Source of the DNA: Trypanosoma brucei
Taxonomy: Eukaryota
Assembly: GCA_000002445.1 (NCBI GenBank)
Contig: CM000207.1
Coordinates: 2,816,001 to 2,880,000 of the forward strand
Reading direction: 5' to 3'
DNA: 64,000 nt
This document shows positions 11,483-57,459 of the stretch, piece by piece. Both the position numbers and the translations under genes were made by a program. The notes beneath the pieces are model-generated. The model made no database searches. It was not told the origin of the DNA and saw only the letters and a list, made by a program, of their open reading frames with translations. Positions within the stretch are counted from its first letter, which is position 1. Every line of letters begins with the position of its first letter.

Positions 11483-11659
11483 TTTTGTCAACCATTTGCG
11501 AAATGAAAATTTTTTGAGGATTTAGTAAAATGTGCATGACAGTGTCCTATGGGAGTAAGTTAATAGCACGATAGGGTATGGCAAGTAAGTTTCATTGTGA
11601 AACTTCATTAATTGATTTTTTTTGTCTATTTTATGGATACTAATAGTTAGGGTTGTGAT

Positions 11660-11720: not shown

Positions 11721-13663
11721 GTTGTGCGGAACGAAATTTGAAGATGACGTGAAGCACTTAAAACAATGGCGCGGCTGCAGTGGCAGTAAATGAGTAATTA
11801 AGAGTGAATGTACGAGAGAAAAAAGTTACGTTATAACAGATAATGAACTCTTGGAAACAGCTTATGTGCAGTATCCAGCGGATATCCAAAGAATAGTATC
11901 ATTATTATACGGAAAAAGCAGAAGATATAAAGTATAAGTACACGGGGGCCATTGAACGGGACAACTGTAATTACTTCGTTACTCGATGAAAAAGAAGTAT
12001 CAGAATCTGGTTACCAAGGCATAGATAAAACAGGCGCTAAAAGAATAAGGGAGCGCATATATTAAGCGATGGAGGAACTTAATAAAGTGGAGAAGAACGA
12101 TGATAATACCCCCCCCCATTTACGTATTGGTATACTTTTCAGACACAAAGGCATTTTTAAAAAAAGGATATCCATATAAAAGTGTTTGATGATGCGCAAC
12201 TAACGAAGCTCATTAACAGAGATAAATCAGATAGGAAGGTACATGTGGATCCCATGATACCAGATATAAAGCGCTATATGTTTAAAAACGACAGAAATGC
12301 AGAAGAAACAAACAGATGTGTAGACTATTCCTTGAAAAACAGAGACACTAGTTGTTTATTTCTTCAGCAAGTAATAGAGATTTGCCGTCAGGTGGAAGAA
12401 AAAATGAACATAAGATTAGAATTTTATGGCGTAGATATGTGTGTTGTATTTGGAATATATTGAGAAGTGAATTAGATGTATAACTTAGATACAAAAACCA
12501 ACAGGAATACAATGACACGAATAAGAGATAAAACCCATAATCTTCGGCTAAACGAACTGTTTTGACAAACTTCCCATACCGGATGAGCCAATAGAAATCG
12601 ACATAAAAACGGGATTTATAAAGTAACATAGACTCATATAGTCGAAACAAGAGCAGAACGTAAAAACTTCTGAGTCCAATTGAAGCATATTAGAACAAAG
12701 AAGAGTCTTTCACAAGAACATACTAAGGATATAGTTAATAGAAGTGGTGTGGATATGAAAAATCCCCATGAAGCTGTAAGAGCCGAAGCCAACTACATAC
12801 AGCAAGTAGCCGTAACAGAGGTGAGCAGCCACAAGCATGCGTAACAATAGATATAAAATTTTCTGCCCAGAAAAAAAAGACTAAGAATTATTTTTTTTAT
12901 ATTTTCTTCGTGCCTTCGTGAGAGTTTCCCCCCACTGGCGCGGCCATCAGCCATCACCGTAGAGCCCTGAAATGCTATCGGTCTGGCGACTGTGGCAGAG
13001 TCTCCATTTTTTTTTCAGCCTAACACACTCTCTATAATTTTTGTTGTAGCTCCGCAGTTGAACGGAATACAGCAGATGGGGCGAGAAGCCACCCAACCCG
13101 GACTCTCCCAAAGATGTCAATTAGCAATCCTTTTGTTTTGATTTTTGTTATTCGTTTATTATTCTCTCCCCTCTTTCTGTTTCTGTTGCTTGTTGATTGC
13201 ATACCCCCTCTGTCTCTGAGGGTGTCTGGACTATTCCTGCGTCCGGTGCTTTTCCTGCTAGCTCCACACTCGGCAATAAGGGGGGAAGTTGCAGAATGGA
13301 GAGTGGGTTGTATGACTGATACATTAGGGGAGGACTTCACCTGCGGCCGGCTTCGTTCAACCGCAATGAGAAACTGCGCCAGCCTTTTAGAGAAACATAT
13401 ATCCTGCACACATACACACCTTCCACCGCAAACCTAACACGTAACTCCTTCAAATCGGGACAGTTCATCAGGTGCAGCGCCGTTTCTTCGCAGTCGCCGC
13501 GTTGGCTGGTAACAGCGCGCTCTACCTTCATATTGTGCATCTTATTTTGATGTAAGGTGAGGCCAGTTCTGCTAGCACACTGCCTTCAGCATGTCGATCA
13601 CACCAACATGGATGTGTTTGTATGTGGGGAATCAGTGACACACAATTTTGTGCTTTTGCTGCA

Positions 13664-14458
13664 TTAAAGCTCGACTCTCTCACCTTTATGGAAAGCCTTA
13701 CAGTGTCGGATGGGAGAGTCCCTGCAACTGAGCACTTTTTGGCACACACCACACTGCTCCTCGCCTTTCCCCGGGACGTCAACGTTTCCTTCACGGGCAC
13801 GCTTACGAGGGAATTGCACCACCACCACGGTACCGTCCTCCGTCACTATGCTCTTATGTTTGAATTTCTTGTGTAGTGACCGGGAAGAGCGTGTACCGAA
13901 GCTCGCCTCACACAGGTCACATTGAAACGGCAGCTTCCGTGTATCCTGAGAGGCTGGCGCTGCTGGAGCGCTACCATCTCTTTGCAATGAGTCCTCGTTC
14001 TCCCGCCCCCTTTTCACGCGGCAACTACCGCTGCCTATGCCATGTATTGTTCTAAGGTGGTGTAATAGTCGGCCTGGCACTGCGAATTTGGAGGCACAGA
14101 GGGTACAATGAAGCACCTGCGGTCTCATCGAGACTCGTGTGCTCGATGGTAGAGGAACGATCGCCACCACTGGAGGGGGCTCCGGGGAGATGTCCACTGC
14201 AGGTGTTGCATCGCCGTATTTGATCCTCCGGAAGGCATAAGCTCGCACAAAGCCATGTTTGTTTACCCTGTGCGTTACAGCACTCGAGTGGGATTGGTAT
14301 TTGGCATCACATTCCGTACATTTGGTCGGTTCGGAGGTTCTCTGAAGAGTGCGTGTCGCAACAGTTGGGGCTGTTTGTATTGTTGGCCCTATCGCTGCAT
14401 GTTGTGGGTTGCACCATCGGCACTGTGGAGGCACACTCGGGTTGATCTTTCGCAACAT
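13664..14458 (-). pseudogene. ingi C-terminal C2H2 zinc-finger segment (264 aa ORF)
   Basis: Repeated CxxC…HxxxH units (CTECDAKYQSHSSAVTHRVNKHG, CTLCASKFAVPGRLLHHLRTIHG, CDLCEASFGTRSSRSLHKKFKH, CGVCQKVLSCRDSPIRHCKAFH). Confidence 0.75.
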
Positions 14459-14520
14459 CCATCCATAGTGTCTTGAAGACCCAACCCGAAAGCGTGCCAG
14501 TGCCGTTTCTTCTTCCCTCG

Positions 14521-16866
14521 TCAGTTCTTCCTTATGTTTTGTTGGAAAGTGGTTGCCGTGATACCAAACCTATGAGTGTTATCATGGACTTCTTCCGACC
14601 TAAGCACTCGCTTCGCATAAGCAATGATGTCGGGGATCCATGTATCTCGCAACTGTGGTAAATCTGCGGACTTTTTGGCCATTTCATCACAAACCTCATT
14701 CCGTTTCACGCCACAATGGCCAAACACAAATTGCAGTTGGATACGCACCTTCCTTCTCTGAACTTGAAGCAGAAGCCTCCATAGTCGTCTTATAATTGGG
14801 TCAGTTACGGCTAGGGGGCCTGTCTGCAGTGCTGTTAACATTGACAGCGAGTCAGAGAAGATGGACAACCTGCTCGGTGTGCTTCTGTATGCCGGAAGCC
14901 ATTTCAGCAGCCGTTGCAGTCCTATCTCTAATGCTACGCATTCCGCTCTGTAACTGCATGAGAGTTCCCCTGCTCCGGTCTTGGGTGCACAAATCAGCGT
15001 GTTTTTTCTATAGAGCAGGGCAGCTGCCCCGGACTTCTCACCGAGGGACACGGATCCATCAGTACACAATTCGTAGTGCTCTCGCCGCGGTGGCTCCTTC
15101 CCCCTCCGTGCAAAATGCCGTTCAATCCACTTTTCGGAAACCTCCCTTTTGACATCGTCAGGGTCATCAGCGCACACAGGCTTTATCTGCGTGTGAAATA
15201 TCGGTCGGCAGCTGTGGCGGAGCGTCGCTGTCTCTAGTGGGTGCTCGCGTGGCTCAATGCGGAGGTGGGGATAAGACCGCATGATGCGGGAATGTAAGAC
15301 TCTGACTGGATGTTTGCTGTGGTATACTTCCTCATCACTGCGCCGCAAACATCCGCCTCGTGACTCACACATCAGCATGAATTTTATGCTGTGCACAAGA
15401 GTGGCCGTCTTGAGTGGCAGGAGGTTTGCTTCCAGCAGAGAGTTCTCTTTGCGCGTCCCATGCGGTATGCCGGCTATGATGCGACTGGCTTTGTGTTGTG
15501 CTGCTGCAAGGAGGTCTAGACTTCGTTTTGAAGCGTCCCAGTACCATACCTCAATGCCATACATGGTGTGTGCCTGTACGAGTGCTAGATAAAAAGCTCT
15601 CAGTACTTGTCGTCTTGGCCTCCATGTAGAAGCTGAGATGGATGCTATCTGCAGTAGTCTCAAGTCCATCTTGCGTCTCGTTTCGGCCGCATGTGTTGCC
15701 ATCCCTTGCAGACACTGGAATGTTACTCCTAGAAGCTTCGGTGTCCTGTCAGCTCCTATTCTTTCGCCGTCTAGTTGTAATGTAAGGGGATGGCGCTCTA
15801 TACACCCGAAGAGTGTGCACTTTGTTTTCGCTATATTGACAGACATGAAGTACTCTTGTGACCACTGTAACACCACGTTGAGGCCGCATTGTAGTGTGTG
15901 GTTGATGGCATCCCTCTCTGTGTGTCTCGCAAGTAGCGTTAGGTCGTTTGCAAAGAATCCGTGCTGCAGTAACGGCACTTCTGCAAGGCGCTGGCTCAAC
16001 GAGTTCATGACAATAATGAACATGATTGGGCCAAGGACAGTTCCTTTTGACACTCCTCGCTCAAATGTTCTGCTTCTGGAAAGCCTCTCCTTGAATCTCA
16101 CTCTGCCAGTTCGGTTACTCAGAAATGATACGCACCACTTCACAATGTGGGGTGATACCTTCATTCTGTGCATTTTCCTCGCAATTTTGTCGTGATCTAC
16201 TGTATCGAATGCCTTCTCGTAGTCAACGAATACAGCACCTGTACGATATTGGTGCGTGGGACGGCAGAGGGCAGCGCGGACGTGCAGCAGTTGTTCGAGC
16301 GTTGAGCATCCGGGGCGAAAGCCTGATTGCTGCGGCGTCAGCTGGGACTCAACAGTGTCTCTAAGCCTCGCGGCAATTATGCGCTCCATGACTTTGCAGA
16401 GACAGCTTGTGAGCGTCACAGGCCTGTAAGAATCGAGGTCCTCCGCCTTTTTTCCGGCCTTCAGGATGGGGATGATAACACCAATCTTCCATGCAGGCAG
16501 CACGACTCCCGTTCGTAGGCTCTCATTGAATAGCCTCAGCACAACATTCAGCGCTGTTCTACCGAGATGTTGCAGTGCCTCGTTGTATAGGCAATCAGGT
16601 CCTGCTGCGGATCCACTCGGAAGTAGTTTGATCGATCTCCGTAGTTCAGCCATCGTGATGGGACTGAACTCACTCGCTATCGTCTTTATTGGTGCCGGTG
16701 GGTGTGAGTCGGGTTGCCTTCTTGCGCGGGACGAGTACAGTTTACTGAACCTCTCAGCTTGACGGTAGTCCGTGATGGCCGCGTTATCAACAAGTACAGC
16801 CAGTGTGGTTAGTGGTCGTGGCGCATATACCTTCTTGACAATGTGCCAACTGCAGCGGTCTGACAC
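14521..16866 (-). pseudogene. ingi reverse transcriptase / RNase H segment (781 aa ORF), separated from the other ORF pieces by frameshifts and stops
   Basis: RT motifs present (…FVDYEKAFDTV…, …GVSKGTVLGPIMFIIVM…, …FFANDLTLLA…). RNase H-like …CTDGSVSLGEKSGAAALLY…. Confidence 0.85.
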
Positions 16867-40811: not shown

Positions 40812-40880
40812 TATTATTATAATATTCGTATATACACACTCACAACACTGTCCTATCAATATTATTACTATTGCAACCCT
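40812..40880 (-). repeat. 70-bp repeat (1 copy)
   Basis: Sequence ctattattataatattcgtatatacacactcacaacactgtcctatcaatattattactattg. Confidence 0.85.
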
Positions 40881-41145
40881 AATTAATATCTATAAAATAA
40901 ACCATGTAACAAATTAGTAAATATTAGAATAATACTCAATGTGAGTACCCTATAAACTTAGTACATTTTATCTACATGCCAAATTTATATGAAAATCACA
41001 TATATTTCAATTTTTGATATTACTTTATTTTCAGTTTTTTTTGCAAATTTTGAGGAGATTTTGCAAAAGTGTTAAAAAACATCAAAAAAATTTATAAATT
41101 TCATAAGTATTCACAAAATTGAGCAAACCCCTTCCTGAAACATTA

Positions 41146-43969: not shown

Positions 43970-44040
43970 ACCACCATAATAATAATATTAGTATACACAC
44001 ACTCACAACATTATTCATTACCGTTACTACTATTACTTTT
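43970..44040 (-). repeat. 70-bp repeat (1 copy)
   Basis: Sequence ataataataatattagtatacacacactcacaacattattcattaccgttactactattac. Confidence 0.8.
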
Positions 44041-44749
44041 ATGACATCAACTAATATCCATTAAATAGACCAAATAAAAAGAATAAACCAATTTATTATA
44101 TGATCTATTTTTACACACTATCACCATAATATTTCACAGCCAGAAGTCACTATCATACCAAATTTTCATTTGTTCAGGATTTTACAATATGTGAATTTTC
44201 CAAATTTTATAAAATTGTTCAAAAATTCCTTAAAATGCTAAAATGCTATCATACTCACAAAAACAGCAGCCATAATAAGAGCCAATTTTTGATTGAGAAA
44301 AATACTGAAATCTTTGCAGGTTCCGCCATCCCATTTGCAGTTGCTGTTCTTTTTACAAGCTTTTTGGTTAGTTCCATGTTAGGCACACCTATCTTTCTTC
44401 CCATGTTTCCTTCTTGGTATTCTTCTCCTTCCCCTTTTGTGTTTTATGTTCCTCATTTAGATTTTCATTCCTTTTTTGGTGGCATCATAGACGTAATGTT
44501 GACTTGGGCATTCTTCTGCTGTTTTTTTAGTTTTCATTTATTCTGGCATGGTATTGTGAGCGAAGCTGCATAATGTCTGCTGGCCTTCTAATATTGGTCG
44601 CCTCATCGCTCTAGTCAGGCCGCGTGGCGTTTAATAAAAATTCCATAAAAAGAAAAAAAGCGAAGATAAAAAATCTCTGGTAAAAAAACAAAAAAATAAA
44701 AAAGGTAAAAAATTTAAGCGATGCTTCATTGCTAGTAAAAACTAATTTA

Positions 44750-44835
44750 TTAGTAAGGGGAGAAATAACCCTAACCCAAATAACCTTAACCTTGACTCTA
44801 AGCATAACCGGAAGCCGGATAACCCTCTCTAGCCT
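44750..44835 (-). repeat. Degenerate telomere-like (TTAGGG-like) tract. The G-strand is on the minus strand.
   Basis: The plus strand reads gggagaaataaccctaacccaaataaccttaaccttgactctaagcataaccggaagccggataaccctctc, which is CCCTAA/TAACC-rich. Confidence 0.6.
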
Positions 44836-44984
44836 AACGTCCATAACCTCTCTGCCTCCTTCCTACTTTATTGGGTTTCTGGAGAAAAATTCAACAGGAA
44901 AAAAGAGTGAATTTTTTTTAGCTATTAGAAAATTCAAAGAATCAGAGAGCCGAAAAAAATTATAATTTCTCGGCTAATTTTTAC

Positions 44985-44999
44985 GTGTTAAAATATATA
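44985..44999 (-). promoter_or_regulatory. VSG 3'UTR 16-mer (reverse complement gtgttaaaatatata)
   Basis: Match about 60 nt 3' of the stop of the 45060..46523 VSG. Confidence 0.6.
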
Positions 45000-45059
45000 A
45001 AGTAGCAAAAATTTTAGCAAGGAAACATTTTTTCATAAAATTGAGGAGGAAAAATTGTT

Positions 45060-46523
45060 TTAAAAAAGCAAGGCAGCAAATGCAGCAAACACGTGAGGAA
45101 CAGACACTCTCACATTGCTAGAAAATGACTTGTCATCTTTCTTTTCAGTTTCAGGTTTTGGAAAGCATCTTTCACCCTCAGGTTTTTTATCATCAAAATC
45201 ACAACCAGCTTCCTTTTTACAATCTTTGGCTGTTGTATGCTTTTTGCATTCGTCTGCTGATTTGGCTGGTTCTGTTGTTTTATCTGTATTTGTGGGACAT
45301 GATCGATTTGCTTGGTTTTTCTTCTTTTGTTCTTGTTCGTCGACGAATTTTTTGACTGTGTAATAGGTTGCTGCATTTGCGAGCTCTTTGGGGTCATTTA
45401 TTGTCTCAAGCTTATTTTCCCCATTTCCACCTACTGCGGATTTTGGGGGCTTTAGGTCCTTGAGGTCTTTGACTATGGTGTTTTTTACTATTGTTGGCTC
45501 TTTGCCAAATGTTTCTGCCATAAACGAGTCGACTTTCGCTTTCGTTGCAGAGTTGGCATATGTCGCTTTGTCTCCATCTAGAGCTTTGGCTATGGCCTCC
45601 TTCAGTTCCGGTCGCGCCGCTACGTCTTCTGGGCTTGAGACATCTGATATGGCGTCTAATGCCTCTACCGCCGTTTCTAGTTTTCTTATTGCTGTAACCG
45701 CCTTGTTTAAAGTCTTGTCATTGGGTATCGTTGTTGTGCTGGTAATTGCTGGATATGTTTTGCCTGCTGAGCTAGCCAGTCGTGTGGTTGTTACGGCCGC
45801 TGTTTTAAGGAAGTCCCCGCCTTTGATCCCGATAAAGGTTGCTTCGTTTTGACATCCGGTTGATGGCGCCGTCCCAGTGGAGCCGTGTCCCCAAATTGTC
45901 AACAATTCGTTGTGCGTTGTGCCAGGGGTATTTGCACTGACGACGAAAAACTTTAATGTGGGCTCGCCCTGATTGGGTTGGGCTGCTTCTGCGTCGCTTA
46001 CTGGTGACCCGTCGTCATTAAAGCACGCCGCTGTTGCTGCTGGTGCTAGGGTCGGTTTGACTTGGATTATGCCGGGCGTCGTGACGGCTTGAGCCGCCGT
46101 TAGCGTATTGACGTCCTGTACTTGCGCTGACTTAATTTCTGAAACGATTGTTTGCTGGCCTGCTAGCTCGGCCGCGGCCGTGAAGCCTTCTAGAAAATTG
46201 GACGTTTCGGTTTTTATCGTTTCAAGTGCCTTGGCAGTTTCCGAAGCTAGGTTGGCTGCTAATATGCTGGCTGCTGTTGCCGCCCCGCCTGTTTTATAAG
46301 CTGCTACAACGCGTAGTTTGTTTGATTTTTCTAGAGCGCCTTTTGCGTTTGTTAGTCCTCTCTCCAATGCGCTCTCCGCTTGCCGCGTTAAGTGACGCAT
46401 GTAATGACTTGCCCCGCATGTGGTCGTTACTTGAGCTTTGGGATTGTGTAGCAAAGTGGTGCCTTGTGCAGTAATGGCCGCTGCTAGTGCTAGCGCACCG
46501 GTTGCCGCTATCCAGTAATTCAT
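45060..46523 (-). CDS. VSG: Variant surface glycoprotein, apparently intact (487 aa). Signal peptide MNYWIAATGALALAAAITAQG. C-terminal domain …CPTNTDKTTEPAKSADECKKHTTAKDCKKEAGCDFDDKKPEGERC… with tail …SFSSNVRVSVPHVFAAFAALLF*.
   Basis: Single uninterrupted ORF with a signal peptide, a VSG N-domain, a Cys-rich C-terminal domain and a hydrophobic C-terminus. A 16-mer and a 70-bp repeat (47648..47710) flank it. Confidence 0.85.
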   Translation of the reverse strand: MNYWIAATGALALAAAITAQGTTLLHNPKAQVTTTCGASHYMRHLTRQAESALERGLTNAKGALEKSNKLRVVAAYKTGGAATAASILAANLASETAKALETIKTETSNFLEGFTAAAELAGQQTIVSEIKSAQVQDVNTLTAAQAVTTPGIIQVKPTLAPAATAACFNDDGSPVSDAEAAQPNQGEPTLKFFVVSANTPGTTHNELLTIWGHGSTGTAPSTGCQNEATFIGIKGGDFLKTAAVTTTRLASSAGKTYPAITSTTTIPNDKTLNKAVTAIRKLETAVEALDAISDVSSPEDVAARPELKEAIAKALDGDKATYANSATKAKVDSFMAETFGKEPTIVKNTIVKDLKDLKPPKSAVGGNGENKLETINDPKELANAATYYTVKKFVDEQEQKKKNQANRSCPTNTDKTTEPAKSADECKKHTTAKDCKKEAGCDFDDKKPEGERCFPKPETEKKDDKSFSSNVRVSVPHVFAAFAALLF

Positions 46524-47647
46524 CGCAGTCGCTTCACTGAGTTAGTGAGGATTCCGTTCTTCGTTTGTCTGGGTTGGAACTCTAGTTGTCCTCAGGTTGA
46601 CCTTTGACGGTTATATTTGCATAAAAATTGCGGTGATTGAAGTTTTAATCTTGTAAAGGATCTCACATACCTGGTTTTTAGAGTTTGTTCAGCCTCAGTG
46701 CTTTGGTTTTTGGGTTTCGCGCTGCAACCTGCACATTAAACTCGTAGTGTAAGGTTTTGGAACTGTGTCATCTTTTAGGGCATAAACGGATTAAACGAGT
46801 TTATAACATCATAAACATAATGAGAAGGGGGAAGGATTTCAATAAACGACTTTTTTGTTCAAATTTTCCATCTATAATTCCAATATATATCGGATTATAT
46901 CTATGTCCATCATCTAGTTTCGTTCCATTCAAGTGACGTACTTCTTTAAGATACATCGAATATTTTTATACCTTAAAATTAGAAGCTTATGTCTTGTCTT
47001 TGCATATAATTAGCGACAATTCTCCAGTCCACGCCGCTGTAGTAACCAGAAAACTTCTTTTTTGTCATGGAAGCAATTGAAATTTGCTTTGGTTTTGCAT
47101 TATGAGTTCTTTCGTTTTTTGTCTAAGTTCAATGCTCTGAAAATTTGGTCCTGAAACTTCTTTTACCTTTGCGTTTGTTTTTTAGAAACATAACTATATT
47201 TCACCATTTGTAACCGCTTTCATATACATCACTCGTTTCCTGAAAACTATTAGCTTCAGTCTAGCATACCAATATGGAATTGGAGGCATATTCCCATTGA
47301 TTCTTTACGCTTCATAGAGATCCTTCATTTGGCCGTATAGAATGTTTATTTTTCTGTTAACTGTATGTTTCCATTGTGCTTTGTTCATAAGCTTATCCTT
47401 TCTGTATCGCTGTATAGAACATATTATATACATTTTTCAGTTGTTTGCGTTGTGCATCTTCATGATGAGTGTTTGTTCATTACTTAGTTTGATACCGCGT
47501 GTAATCCATCTCTATTCGTAAAATTTCTTTTATAATAGTATTTCTTGTTGCTCCTGCAAATTTTTCTTCAAACGCTTAATTTCATTGCATCCTTGCAATT
47601 GTTTTAAGTAAATCTATTATCGCAGTGTATCTATTGTTCAACGTCAC

Positions 47648-47710
47648 TTATATTATAATATTATTATATACTCACAACAAGTTCCTCTACTACTATTTCT
47701 ATCGTACCCA
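47648..47710 (-). repeat. Degenerate 70-bp repeat
   Basis: Sequence tattataatattattatatactcacaacaagttcctctactactatttc. Confidence 0.55.
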
Positions 47711-48019
47711 TAGCTAATATTTCTAAGATAACAAAAAATAAAGAATAAATAAAATAAGAATAGTAATCATTTTTCATAATTACCATTAGTTTTAACCCAC
47801 ATGCCGCCATCATACTAATTTTTACTAAAGTTCGATATTTTCAAATTTTCTCAAAATTATCAACAAATTTGCATATTTTATCTAAAAAGTGTTATAATAT
47901 CATAAATATAGCAAATCCTCCTAAAATAGTAAACATCATAAAATTCACTGAGTTGAGAAAAATTCTTTTACCAATAGTTCTCTAAATTGTTCTCATAGAA
48001 GTAGAAATGCATGCACAAC

Positions 48020-56254: not shown

Positions 56255-57459
56255 CCTTGAATGCCCGGCGGTAGAAGTATTCTGCTAGCAGAATTGCTGC
56301 TGTCTACTCCTTCGTAGTGGGTTTAATTCGAGAAAAAATGCGACTGCGGACTGCCTGTTATTTGAGCGTTGTATAATCCGATAATATCGTGGTCGTGTCG
56401 TGATAAACTTGATTTCTTATTGTCCCCAGCTCCGCTGTTAGGCCAGAGATGGGCACCCACGCTGTCTTCAGCAAGCCGTGTCCTACTTTTCCGTGCACCC
56501 GCCTACTCTGCATCGCTGCTGCTGTTAGAATTGCTGCTAGCAGCGTCGCTTGTGGTGTCGAAACAATTATATTTTTTCTTGTCCTGCTTCTTCGGTAATC
56601 CTCGGAGTTTTCAATGTTTCAATGGATAAGGTTAGGAACCATTTGTATTGGAATTAGTGCGTTTATCAGTTGGATATATAGAAGGCGTAATTAAAGTCCG
56701 GTGCCGAAATTACAGAGGTTAGGCGGAAATGTTTCTGGGGGTGCCGTTTCTTTTGCATAAGTAGCGAGCACATCACTTTGGTATGAACAACGTTCCTTGC
56801 GCCGCCGCATAGTGCTAGATTAAAGCACAGGTTTTACATTGCAATACGTAAAATCGCTACTTCTGTTGCTATCCTTACATTTTTCGGCAGTATCCCTGTA
56901 ACATCTCGTTATATTCCAGGATATATCCATGAAAGGAAATATCGTTGGGTGTATGCCTGATGAGGTTTCCTCTTCTCTCAATGAAAAATGTTTTAAAGGT
57001 ATTATTTACATAAGGCATATCTTTAGTCTGTTTAATATTCATATATATGCCAAATATATGGCTTTTTGGTGAAGTTACAACTGGAACTGTTTTCAAACCG
57101 TATATTGCTCGTCATTGTTTTTCTTAATATCAGATCGGTCACTAGAGATTCTGTATTTCTTTTCTAGCTTTGGGTACGAATTACTTTGTTCGGTTTTCTT
57201 CCATATTTGGTTACAGCTTCTTCTCGAGTTCCTCTTTTGTTGATCTTTCAAACCTTGCTGCTGCATTAGTGTATAGAATTGCTGTTTTTCTCTCTGAACT
57301 CTGTGGCGACGTATGTTTTCTCCATACAGGAGTTTATTCCGATTCAATTCTTGTGTATTTTTATTACGGATCGCTTTTTAAGTACATTATAAATGCTTTT
57401 GTTTTTCGACCTCTTCCAGTCCTTCTGGAGTTTCAATTACTTTTCCAAAAAAAAATATA

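Follow-up and report, generated by a model that had tools for sequence, protein, structure and literature searches.

The VSG Gene and Its Cassette

The 64-kb stretch of DNA analysed here (the window) is a silent array of genes encoding variant surface glycoproteins (VSGs), from one strain, Trypanosoma brucei brucei TREU927. On its minus strand lies an uninterrupted VSG that is followed, shortly after the stop codon, by a degenerate tract resembling TTAGGG telomere repeats, and the origin of this tract is the subject of the present analysis. The gene, its cassette and the tract comprise the following features, listed in the sense of VSG transcription:

47645-47712, minus strand: single degenerate 70-bp repeat (GTAGTAGAGGAACTTGTTGTGAGTATATAATAATATTATAATATAAG), read directly; 5′ border of the VSG cassette
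45060-46523, minus strand: VSG open reading frame (ORF) of 487 aa, uninterrupted (Pfam PF00913)
[quoted passage not shown]
44866-44984, minus strand: non-generic 3′ flank (AACAC, then GTAAAAATTAGCCGAG...CTCTCTGATT...TTTTTTCCTGTTGAATTTTTCTCCAG)
44766-44848, minus strand: degenerate telomere-like tract, G-strand in VSG sense (GGTTAT..CGTTAG..GGGTTAT..GGTTAT..GGTTAAGGTTATTTGGGTTAGGGTTA)

A preliminary description of the window, made from its letters, had reported an intact VSG here, and both its coordinates and its orientation were confirmed. The protein is 100% identical to the TREU927 protein EAN77428.1/XP_827758.1, which is annotated as "variant surface glycoprotein (VSG, atypical), putative." Its closest relative is MITat 1.21 (VSG 427-21; PDB 8Q0P, UniProt B3GVH9) with 86% identity over the full length, the C-terminus included. 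MITat 1.21 is the telomere-proximal VSG of bloodstream expression site (BES) 4 of the Lister 427 strain, carried by an intermediate chromosome of 0.25 Mb (Hertz-Fowler et al., 2008; PMC2567434). When the C-terminal 112 aa of the protein were searched alone for homologues, no match was obtained.

The 70-bp repeat that borders the cassette is found ≈1.1 kb upstream of the VSG start codon, and is too degenerate to be picked up by a scan for the 70-bp core allowing two mismatches. Beyond position 47712 follows the 3′ end of another array VSG, a pseudogene with a generic flank, near 47889. With an array pseudogene upstream, further cassettes downstream and no long 70-bp array, the locus is not a present-day expression site.

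The VSG cassettes of the window are on the plus strand from 1 to 11.7 kb and on the minus strand from ≈18 to 64 kb. At this convergent strand switch, ORFs of an ingi-type retroelement encoding reverse transcriptase and RNase H are found (13664-16866, minus strand).

A Strand-Specific Telomere-Like Tract Downstream of the VSG

The plus strand between 44765 and 44850 reads ATAACCCTAACCCAAATAACCTTAACC...ATAACC...ATAACCC...CTAACG...ATAACC. Seven TAACC cores are packed into these ≈85 bp (plus-strand positions 44766, 44772, 44781, 44787, 44805, 44820, and 44844), out of 43 on the plus strand of the whole window, and the sole exact TAACCCTAACCC of the window falls in the tract. GGTTA does not occur on the plus strand within it, so that all cores are on one strand and the G-strand runs in the direction of VSG transcription, as had been noticed at the outset. 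No other 90-bp stretch of the window contains more than two TAACC or GGTTA cores.

Read in VSG sense the tract is GGTTAT-GGA-CGTTAG-GCTAGAGA-GGGTTAT-CCGGCTTCC-GGTTAT-GCTTAGAGTCAA-GGTTAA-GGTTAT-TT-GGGTTAGGGTTA. The hexamers come closer to TTAGGG going 3′ and terminate in a perfect GGGTTAGGGTTA, a gradient that was judged by eye. The perfect dimer occupies positions 44766-44777.

Clustering of this kind was compared with chance expectation using 800 simulated 64-kb sequences, of which one half followed the window in a second-order Markov model and the other half the local AT-rich flank in a first-order model (400 each). No simulated sequence had more than three cores per 90 bp on either strand anywhere in its 64 kb, against the seven observed. 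The suspicion that an AT-rich background might yield such hexamers by itself can thus be put aside, and a chance origin of the tract is excluded by the simulations. A local alignment to (TTAGGG)n covers positions 44848-44766, and a more permissive alignment (44870-44742) scores 106, where the highest score among 3000 random 160-nt windows is 77.

The first GGTTA is found 212 nt past the VSG stop codon and the perfect dimer at 283-294 nt. [quoted passage not shown] The seven cores, 212-294 nt past the stop, where the preliminary description had placed a degenerate TTAGGG-like tract, therefore fall within the published range, at its short end.

There is also a weak 39-nt periodicity over 44640-44890 (autocorrelation z ≈ 4.4), with two direct-repeat pairs at a 39-nt spacing, the A-rich stretch at 44640-44725 and the TAACC tract both being involved. 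It may be what remains of a structured repeat of the telomere-associated kind.

The 3′UTR and the Flank of the VSG

The sequence between the stop codon and the tract is also unlike that of the neighboring cassettes. The motif TTGCTACT at 45001-45008 is one that we take, from recall of its sequence, to be the 8-mer of VSG mRNAs. [quoted passage not shown] A CU-rich stretch, an 8-mer and a 16-mer make up the 3′UTR architecture of VSG mRNAs (PMC8051951). The first two bases of the 16-mer are altered in the window VSG (44985-45025), while the VSG on a T. equiperdum contig (L003, described below) has the usual spacer TTGCTACTTGAAAAACTTTCTGATATATTTTAACAC in its 3′UTR. The altered start of the 16-mer may have a bearing on the "atypical" annotation of the gene or on its expressibility.

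The flank leaves the array consensus directly after the 16-mer, and a blastn search showed that positions 44866-44984 have no other copy in the window. Within this flank, at ≈44875-44905, a polypyrimidine tract is followed by AG. This element, which is conserved in the flank, probably once served 3′-end formation of the VSG mRNA, with the VSG as the last gene of a transcription unit. An inverted repeat able to form a hairpin (AGCCGAGAAA...TTTTTCGGCT; 44948-44975, minus strand) is found just after the 16-mer, and its first arm alone is conserved in L003.

Among the fetched loci, the sole homologue of the flank is the 3′ flank of the VSG on L003, a contig of 3.4 kb, which reads AACAC, then CTAAATTAAGCCGAG...CTCTCTGATT...TTTTCCTGTTTT. 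The contig starts inside a 70-bp repeat and breaks off ≈40 nt before the position equivalent to the start of the tract. Such ends would be expected of a short-read contig of a cassette that lies between a long 70-bp array and telomere-associated repeats. In addition, 120 metagenome loci carrying the flank motif were compared with the flank by blastn. These were rejected as chance matches, as only a single short alignment was obtained (37 nt, E 3e-4).

Comparison With Other VSG 3′ Ends

Because a tract present behind many array VSGs would be a generic 3′ flank and not a telomere remnant, it was of importance to compare the window VSG with other 3′ ends. The comparison covered ≈11 VSG 3′ ends of the window, each marked by a 16-mer, together with six from loci of T. 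equiperdum and T. b. equiperdum (L001-L006). Seven of the other window ends were read (16-mers near 946, 4412, 11465, 33701, 37482, 41069, and 47889), and all seven have the same generic layout, i.e., the 16-mer, a AACACTTTTTG-like sequence, which is looser at two of the seven, and a 70-bp repeat within ≈150-250 nt. L001, L004, L005, and L006 (T. equiperdum OVI and T. b. equiperdum IVM-t1) follow this layout as well, while the 3′ ends of L002, which has a short flank, and L003 are cut by contig ends and are not readable in full.

The window VSG departs from the generic layout: GTAAAAATTAGCCGAG comes after its 16-mer, and ≈950 nt separate the 16-mer from the next 70-bp repeat. No tract was found at the other 16-mer-marked VSG 3′ ends in the window, nor is there a GGTTA cluster in any of the six fetched loci, which bears out the earlier view that the tract is something other than generic array flank.

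A link between the tract and the class of the C-terminal domain was also considered. The VSGs of L004, L005, and L006 belong to the same unusual C-terminal-domain class (...SFSSNLRVSVPQVF...) as the window VSG and have a generic flank. As these three array VSGs share the class without the tract, the class does not bring the tract with it, and such a link was rejected.

Three minor hexamer clusters in the window were rejected as tracts. At 40874 and 11531 the cluster is no more than the lone TTAGGGTTG found ahead of every 70-bp repeat, and the one at 56605 is inside VSG-related sequence. In several cassettes a single telomere-like TTAGGGTTG or ATAGGGTTG is found directly 5′ of the 70-bp repeat (≈1140-1150 and 11645-11655 on the plus strand, 40875-40885 on the minus strand, and 11750-11760 in L001). 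In L006, the T. b. equiperdum 70-bp repeat runs into a (TA)n tract of ≈26 nt (11805-11830). L001, a T. b. equiperdum chromosome locus, was tried as the syntenic counterpart of the window and rejected, as it is not syntenic with it.

The Sequence Beyond the Tract

On the far side of the tract, the following features lead up to the next cassette:

44640-44725, minus strand: stretch that is rich in T when read in VSG sense (and in A on the plus strand), between the tract and a VSG fragment
44240-44535, minus strand: pseudogene fragment consisting of a VSG C-terminal domain only (Pfam PF10659, profile positions 3-103 of 104, E 9e-15)
44041-44239, minus strand: degenerate 3′UTR and generic array flank of this fragment, by blastn homology to other cassettes
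43970-44040, minus strand: 70-bp repeat of the next cassette (VSG 42459-41146), core at 43997-44013

The preliminary description had an A-rich stretch on the plus strand, which is indeed present at 44640-44725, and had the 70-bp repeat at 43970-44040 follow the tract. The repeat is there, but the C-terminal-domain fragment in between had been overlooked. The fragment starts ≈100 nt from the T-rich stretch, holds a complete domain with two in-frame stop codons and matches the 3′ ends of other VSGs in blastn searches. The T-rich stretch has no homologue in the window or in any fetched locus. An inverted, 16-mer-like match at 44100-44116 was dismissed as a chance resemblance inside the generic flank.

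The flank distal to the tract is thus unrelated to the proximal one, consisting of the T-rich stretch and then the C-terminal-domain fragment with its generic array flank. The telomere-like tract thus links the VSG to the 3′ portion of a cassette other than its own. The two ancestral segments meet somewhere in 44536-44765, and no homology is visible at this 3′ junction.

Origin of the Tract

The tract is a genuine feature of the sequence, unique, graded and confined to one strand; the VSG differs from the array type in its 3′UTR and flank, and its closest relative is telomere-proximal. From this we infer a former terminal position of the gene, and we consider it probable that the tract is the inert scar of a former VSG-telomere junction. 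The idea of a once-telomeric VSG that became internal to the array had been raised in the preliminary description, and the tract, the flank, the 3′UTR and the relation to MITat 1.21 all support it; of the mechanisms then suggested, telomere healing fits least.

The cassette, made up of the 70-bp repeat, the VSG21-like gene, the mRNA-type 3′UTR, an expression-site-type flank of ≈120 nt and the first of the degenerate, telomere-associated hexamers, would once have been located at a chromosome end, or would alternatively have been copied from one. The surviving sequence would then mark where, at a natural chromosome end, degenerate telomere-associated hexamers give way to the first true repeats. 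This end, with about two perfect TTAGGG repeats left, would have become attached to the 3′ portion of a second array cassette, namely the C-terminal-domain fragment with its generic flank and 70-bp repeat. T. brucei is not known to possess classical end joining, and because of this microhomology-mediated joining, or break-induced replication or template switching after telomere erosion, would be the most likely routes. Homology and microhomology are reported to dominate break repair in T. brucei (PMC2377438). A further route would be a conversion tract that reached the donor telomere and was followed by a template switch. The sequence of one strain does not separate microhomology joining, break-induced replication and conversion with template switching. 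Among the mechanisms named earlier, de novo telomere healing ranks as the least likely, because it would give an abrupt switch to perfect TTAGGG, whereas the transition at this locus is gradual and extends over ≈70 nt of degenerate hexamers.

We also infer that the tract is without present function; no evidence for one was seen, and little telomere protein is likely to bind to its two perfect repeats. That the tract might act as a seed for telomerase after a nearby break is speculation.

Several points weigh against a former VSG-telomere junction. Only two perfect hexamers are left and the remainder is heavily degenerate, and the tract could be telomere-associated sequence instead of telomere proper. 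The upstream side of the VSG is ordinary array context, with one degenerate 70-bp repeat, no expression-site-associated genes (ESAGs) and no promoter. The usual VSG traffic goes from the array to the expression site, so that kinship with MITat 1.21 is compatible with transfer either way. That L003 is telomeric is a presumption, and the flank comparison covers the window and the six equiperdum loci. Furthermore, the tract was read in one strain, TREU927.

Among other explanations, VSG 3′ flanks might include a second class, rarer than the generic one, to which the tract belongs, a family of telomere-associated sequence that has spread in the arrays by cassette duplication. The gene would then never have been terminal, and the hexamers, although ultimately derived from telomeres, would now be generic to the class. 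The non-generic flank that L003 shares to within ≈40 nt of the tract position is in line with this, and the weak 39-nt periodicity with its two 39-nt pairs hints at a structured subtelomeric repeat over hexamer decay. Yet neither the other VSG 3′ ends of the window nor any of the six in other loci has the tract, and the flank is common to L003 only, whose contig stops before the tract position. L003 is moreover short and spans from the 70-bp repeat to the flank break, as would be more fitting for a telomeric cassette than for one in an array. We therefore regard a rarer flank class as unlikely. A still less probable explanation is gene conversion from a telomeric donor, in which the VSG and its flank were copied into an array cassette, into the first telomere repeats and then back, so that telomeric sequence was captured and no chromosome end was internalised. 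The 70-bp repeat upstream is the usual 5′ border of such conversions, the C-terminal domain downstream with its own flank could be a leftover of the recipient, and the closest relative of the VSG is located in a BES. Against this stands the lack of visible homology at the 3′ junction where the conversion would have ended, and the direction from telomere to array, which is opposite to the usual one. Conversion also changes how the tract arose and not what it is, and it is not separable from a former VSG-telomere junction by sequence alone.

A cluster arisen by chance in sequence of low complexity, or a chimera produced by assembly or cloning, is a highly improbable account of the tract. The surrounding flank is AT-rich and repetitive, and subtelomeric arrays are hard to assemble. 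The simulations that set seven cores against at most three included the local composition, however, and chance would also have to explain the strict strand bias and the hexamer register of the cores. An assembly chimera is unlikely, since the tract is embedded in unique sequence, a partly homologous flank is found in an independent genome, and a clone join would have to fall exactly inside two hexamers.

Relation to Known Systems and Significance

Normal expression of a VSG requires a telomere. The locus resembles a BES in its telomere-proximal VSG, which is 86% identical to the MITat 1.21 protein of BES4 with the unusual C-terminus included, and in having a 70-bp repeat upstream, an mRNA-type 3′UTR and a G-strand in VSG sense that starts 212 nt past the stop. 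It differs in having ≈14 degenerate hexamers where a BES has a kilobase-scale TTAGGG array, and one degenerate 70-bp repeat where a BES has an array of 0.2-7.1 kb. ESAGs and a promoter are missing, and the tract is followed by array sequence and is thus internal. With a generic silent-array cassette the locus shares the upstream 70-bp repeat, the VSG, the 16-mer and neighbors in the same orientation. Unlike such a cassette, its flank diverges after the 16-mer and the next 70-bp repeat is ≈950 nt away instead of 150-250 nt, with the telomere-like tract, the T-rich stretch and the C-terminal-domain-only fragment located in these ≈950 nt.

Interstitial telomeric sequences are known from human and other subtelomeres, where degenerate TTAGGG islands are found at duplicon borders. 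Like these islands, the tract is short, degenerate and of a single orientation, as are relics of joins between former chromosome ends and subtelomeres; it belongs to another organism and gene family, and is found at a fixed offset behind an antigen gene. In Plasmodium knowlesi, intrachromosomal telomere-like repeats are found beside SICAvar and pir/kir genes (summarised in PMC9131526). Both cases thus have telomere-like repeats near variant-antigen genes away from chromosome ends. The P. knowlesi repeats are genome-wide and of many families, whereas the window tract is the single exception among the ≈11 and six VSG 3′ ends. Full-text literature searches, with the older work on telomeric VSG flanks thinly covered, returned no paper on telomere repeats of an interstitial, internal or degenerate kind within the VSG arrays of T. 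brucei. An interstitial telomeric relic in a subtelomere is a known kind of feature, of which the window locus is a fresh example.

In itself the locus is a single and probably inert relic. VSG arrays are usually viewed as donors only, and little is documented about how the archive is built and refreshed. A telomere scar that can be dated, behind an uninterrupted VSG whose closest relative belongs to another strain's expression site, would be a single concrete case of a VSG moving out of a telomere into the array. The locus also offers a signature that can be counted genome-wide, i.e., an mRNA-type 3′UTR, a non-generic flank and degenerate G-strand hexamers 200-300 nt past the stop. Tentatively, a VSG from a telomeric expression site may have been written back into the silent subtelomeric archive together with its 3′UTR, its flank and a telomere stump, although we regard such reverse traffic as doubtful. 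If it is true and recurrent, it would be a route for storing VSGs that were made or tested at telomeres, and the interstitial G-strand seed could let telomerase re-create a telomeric VSG after a downstream break.

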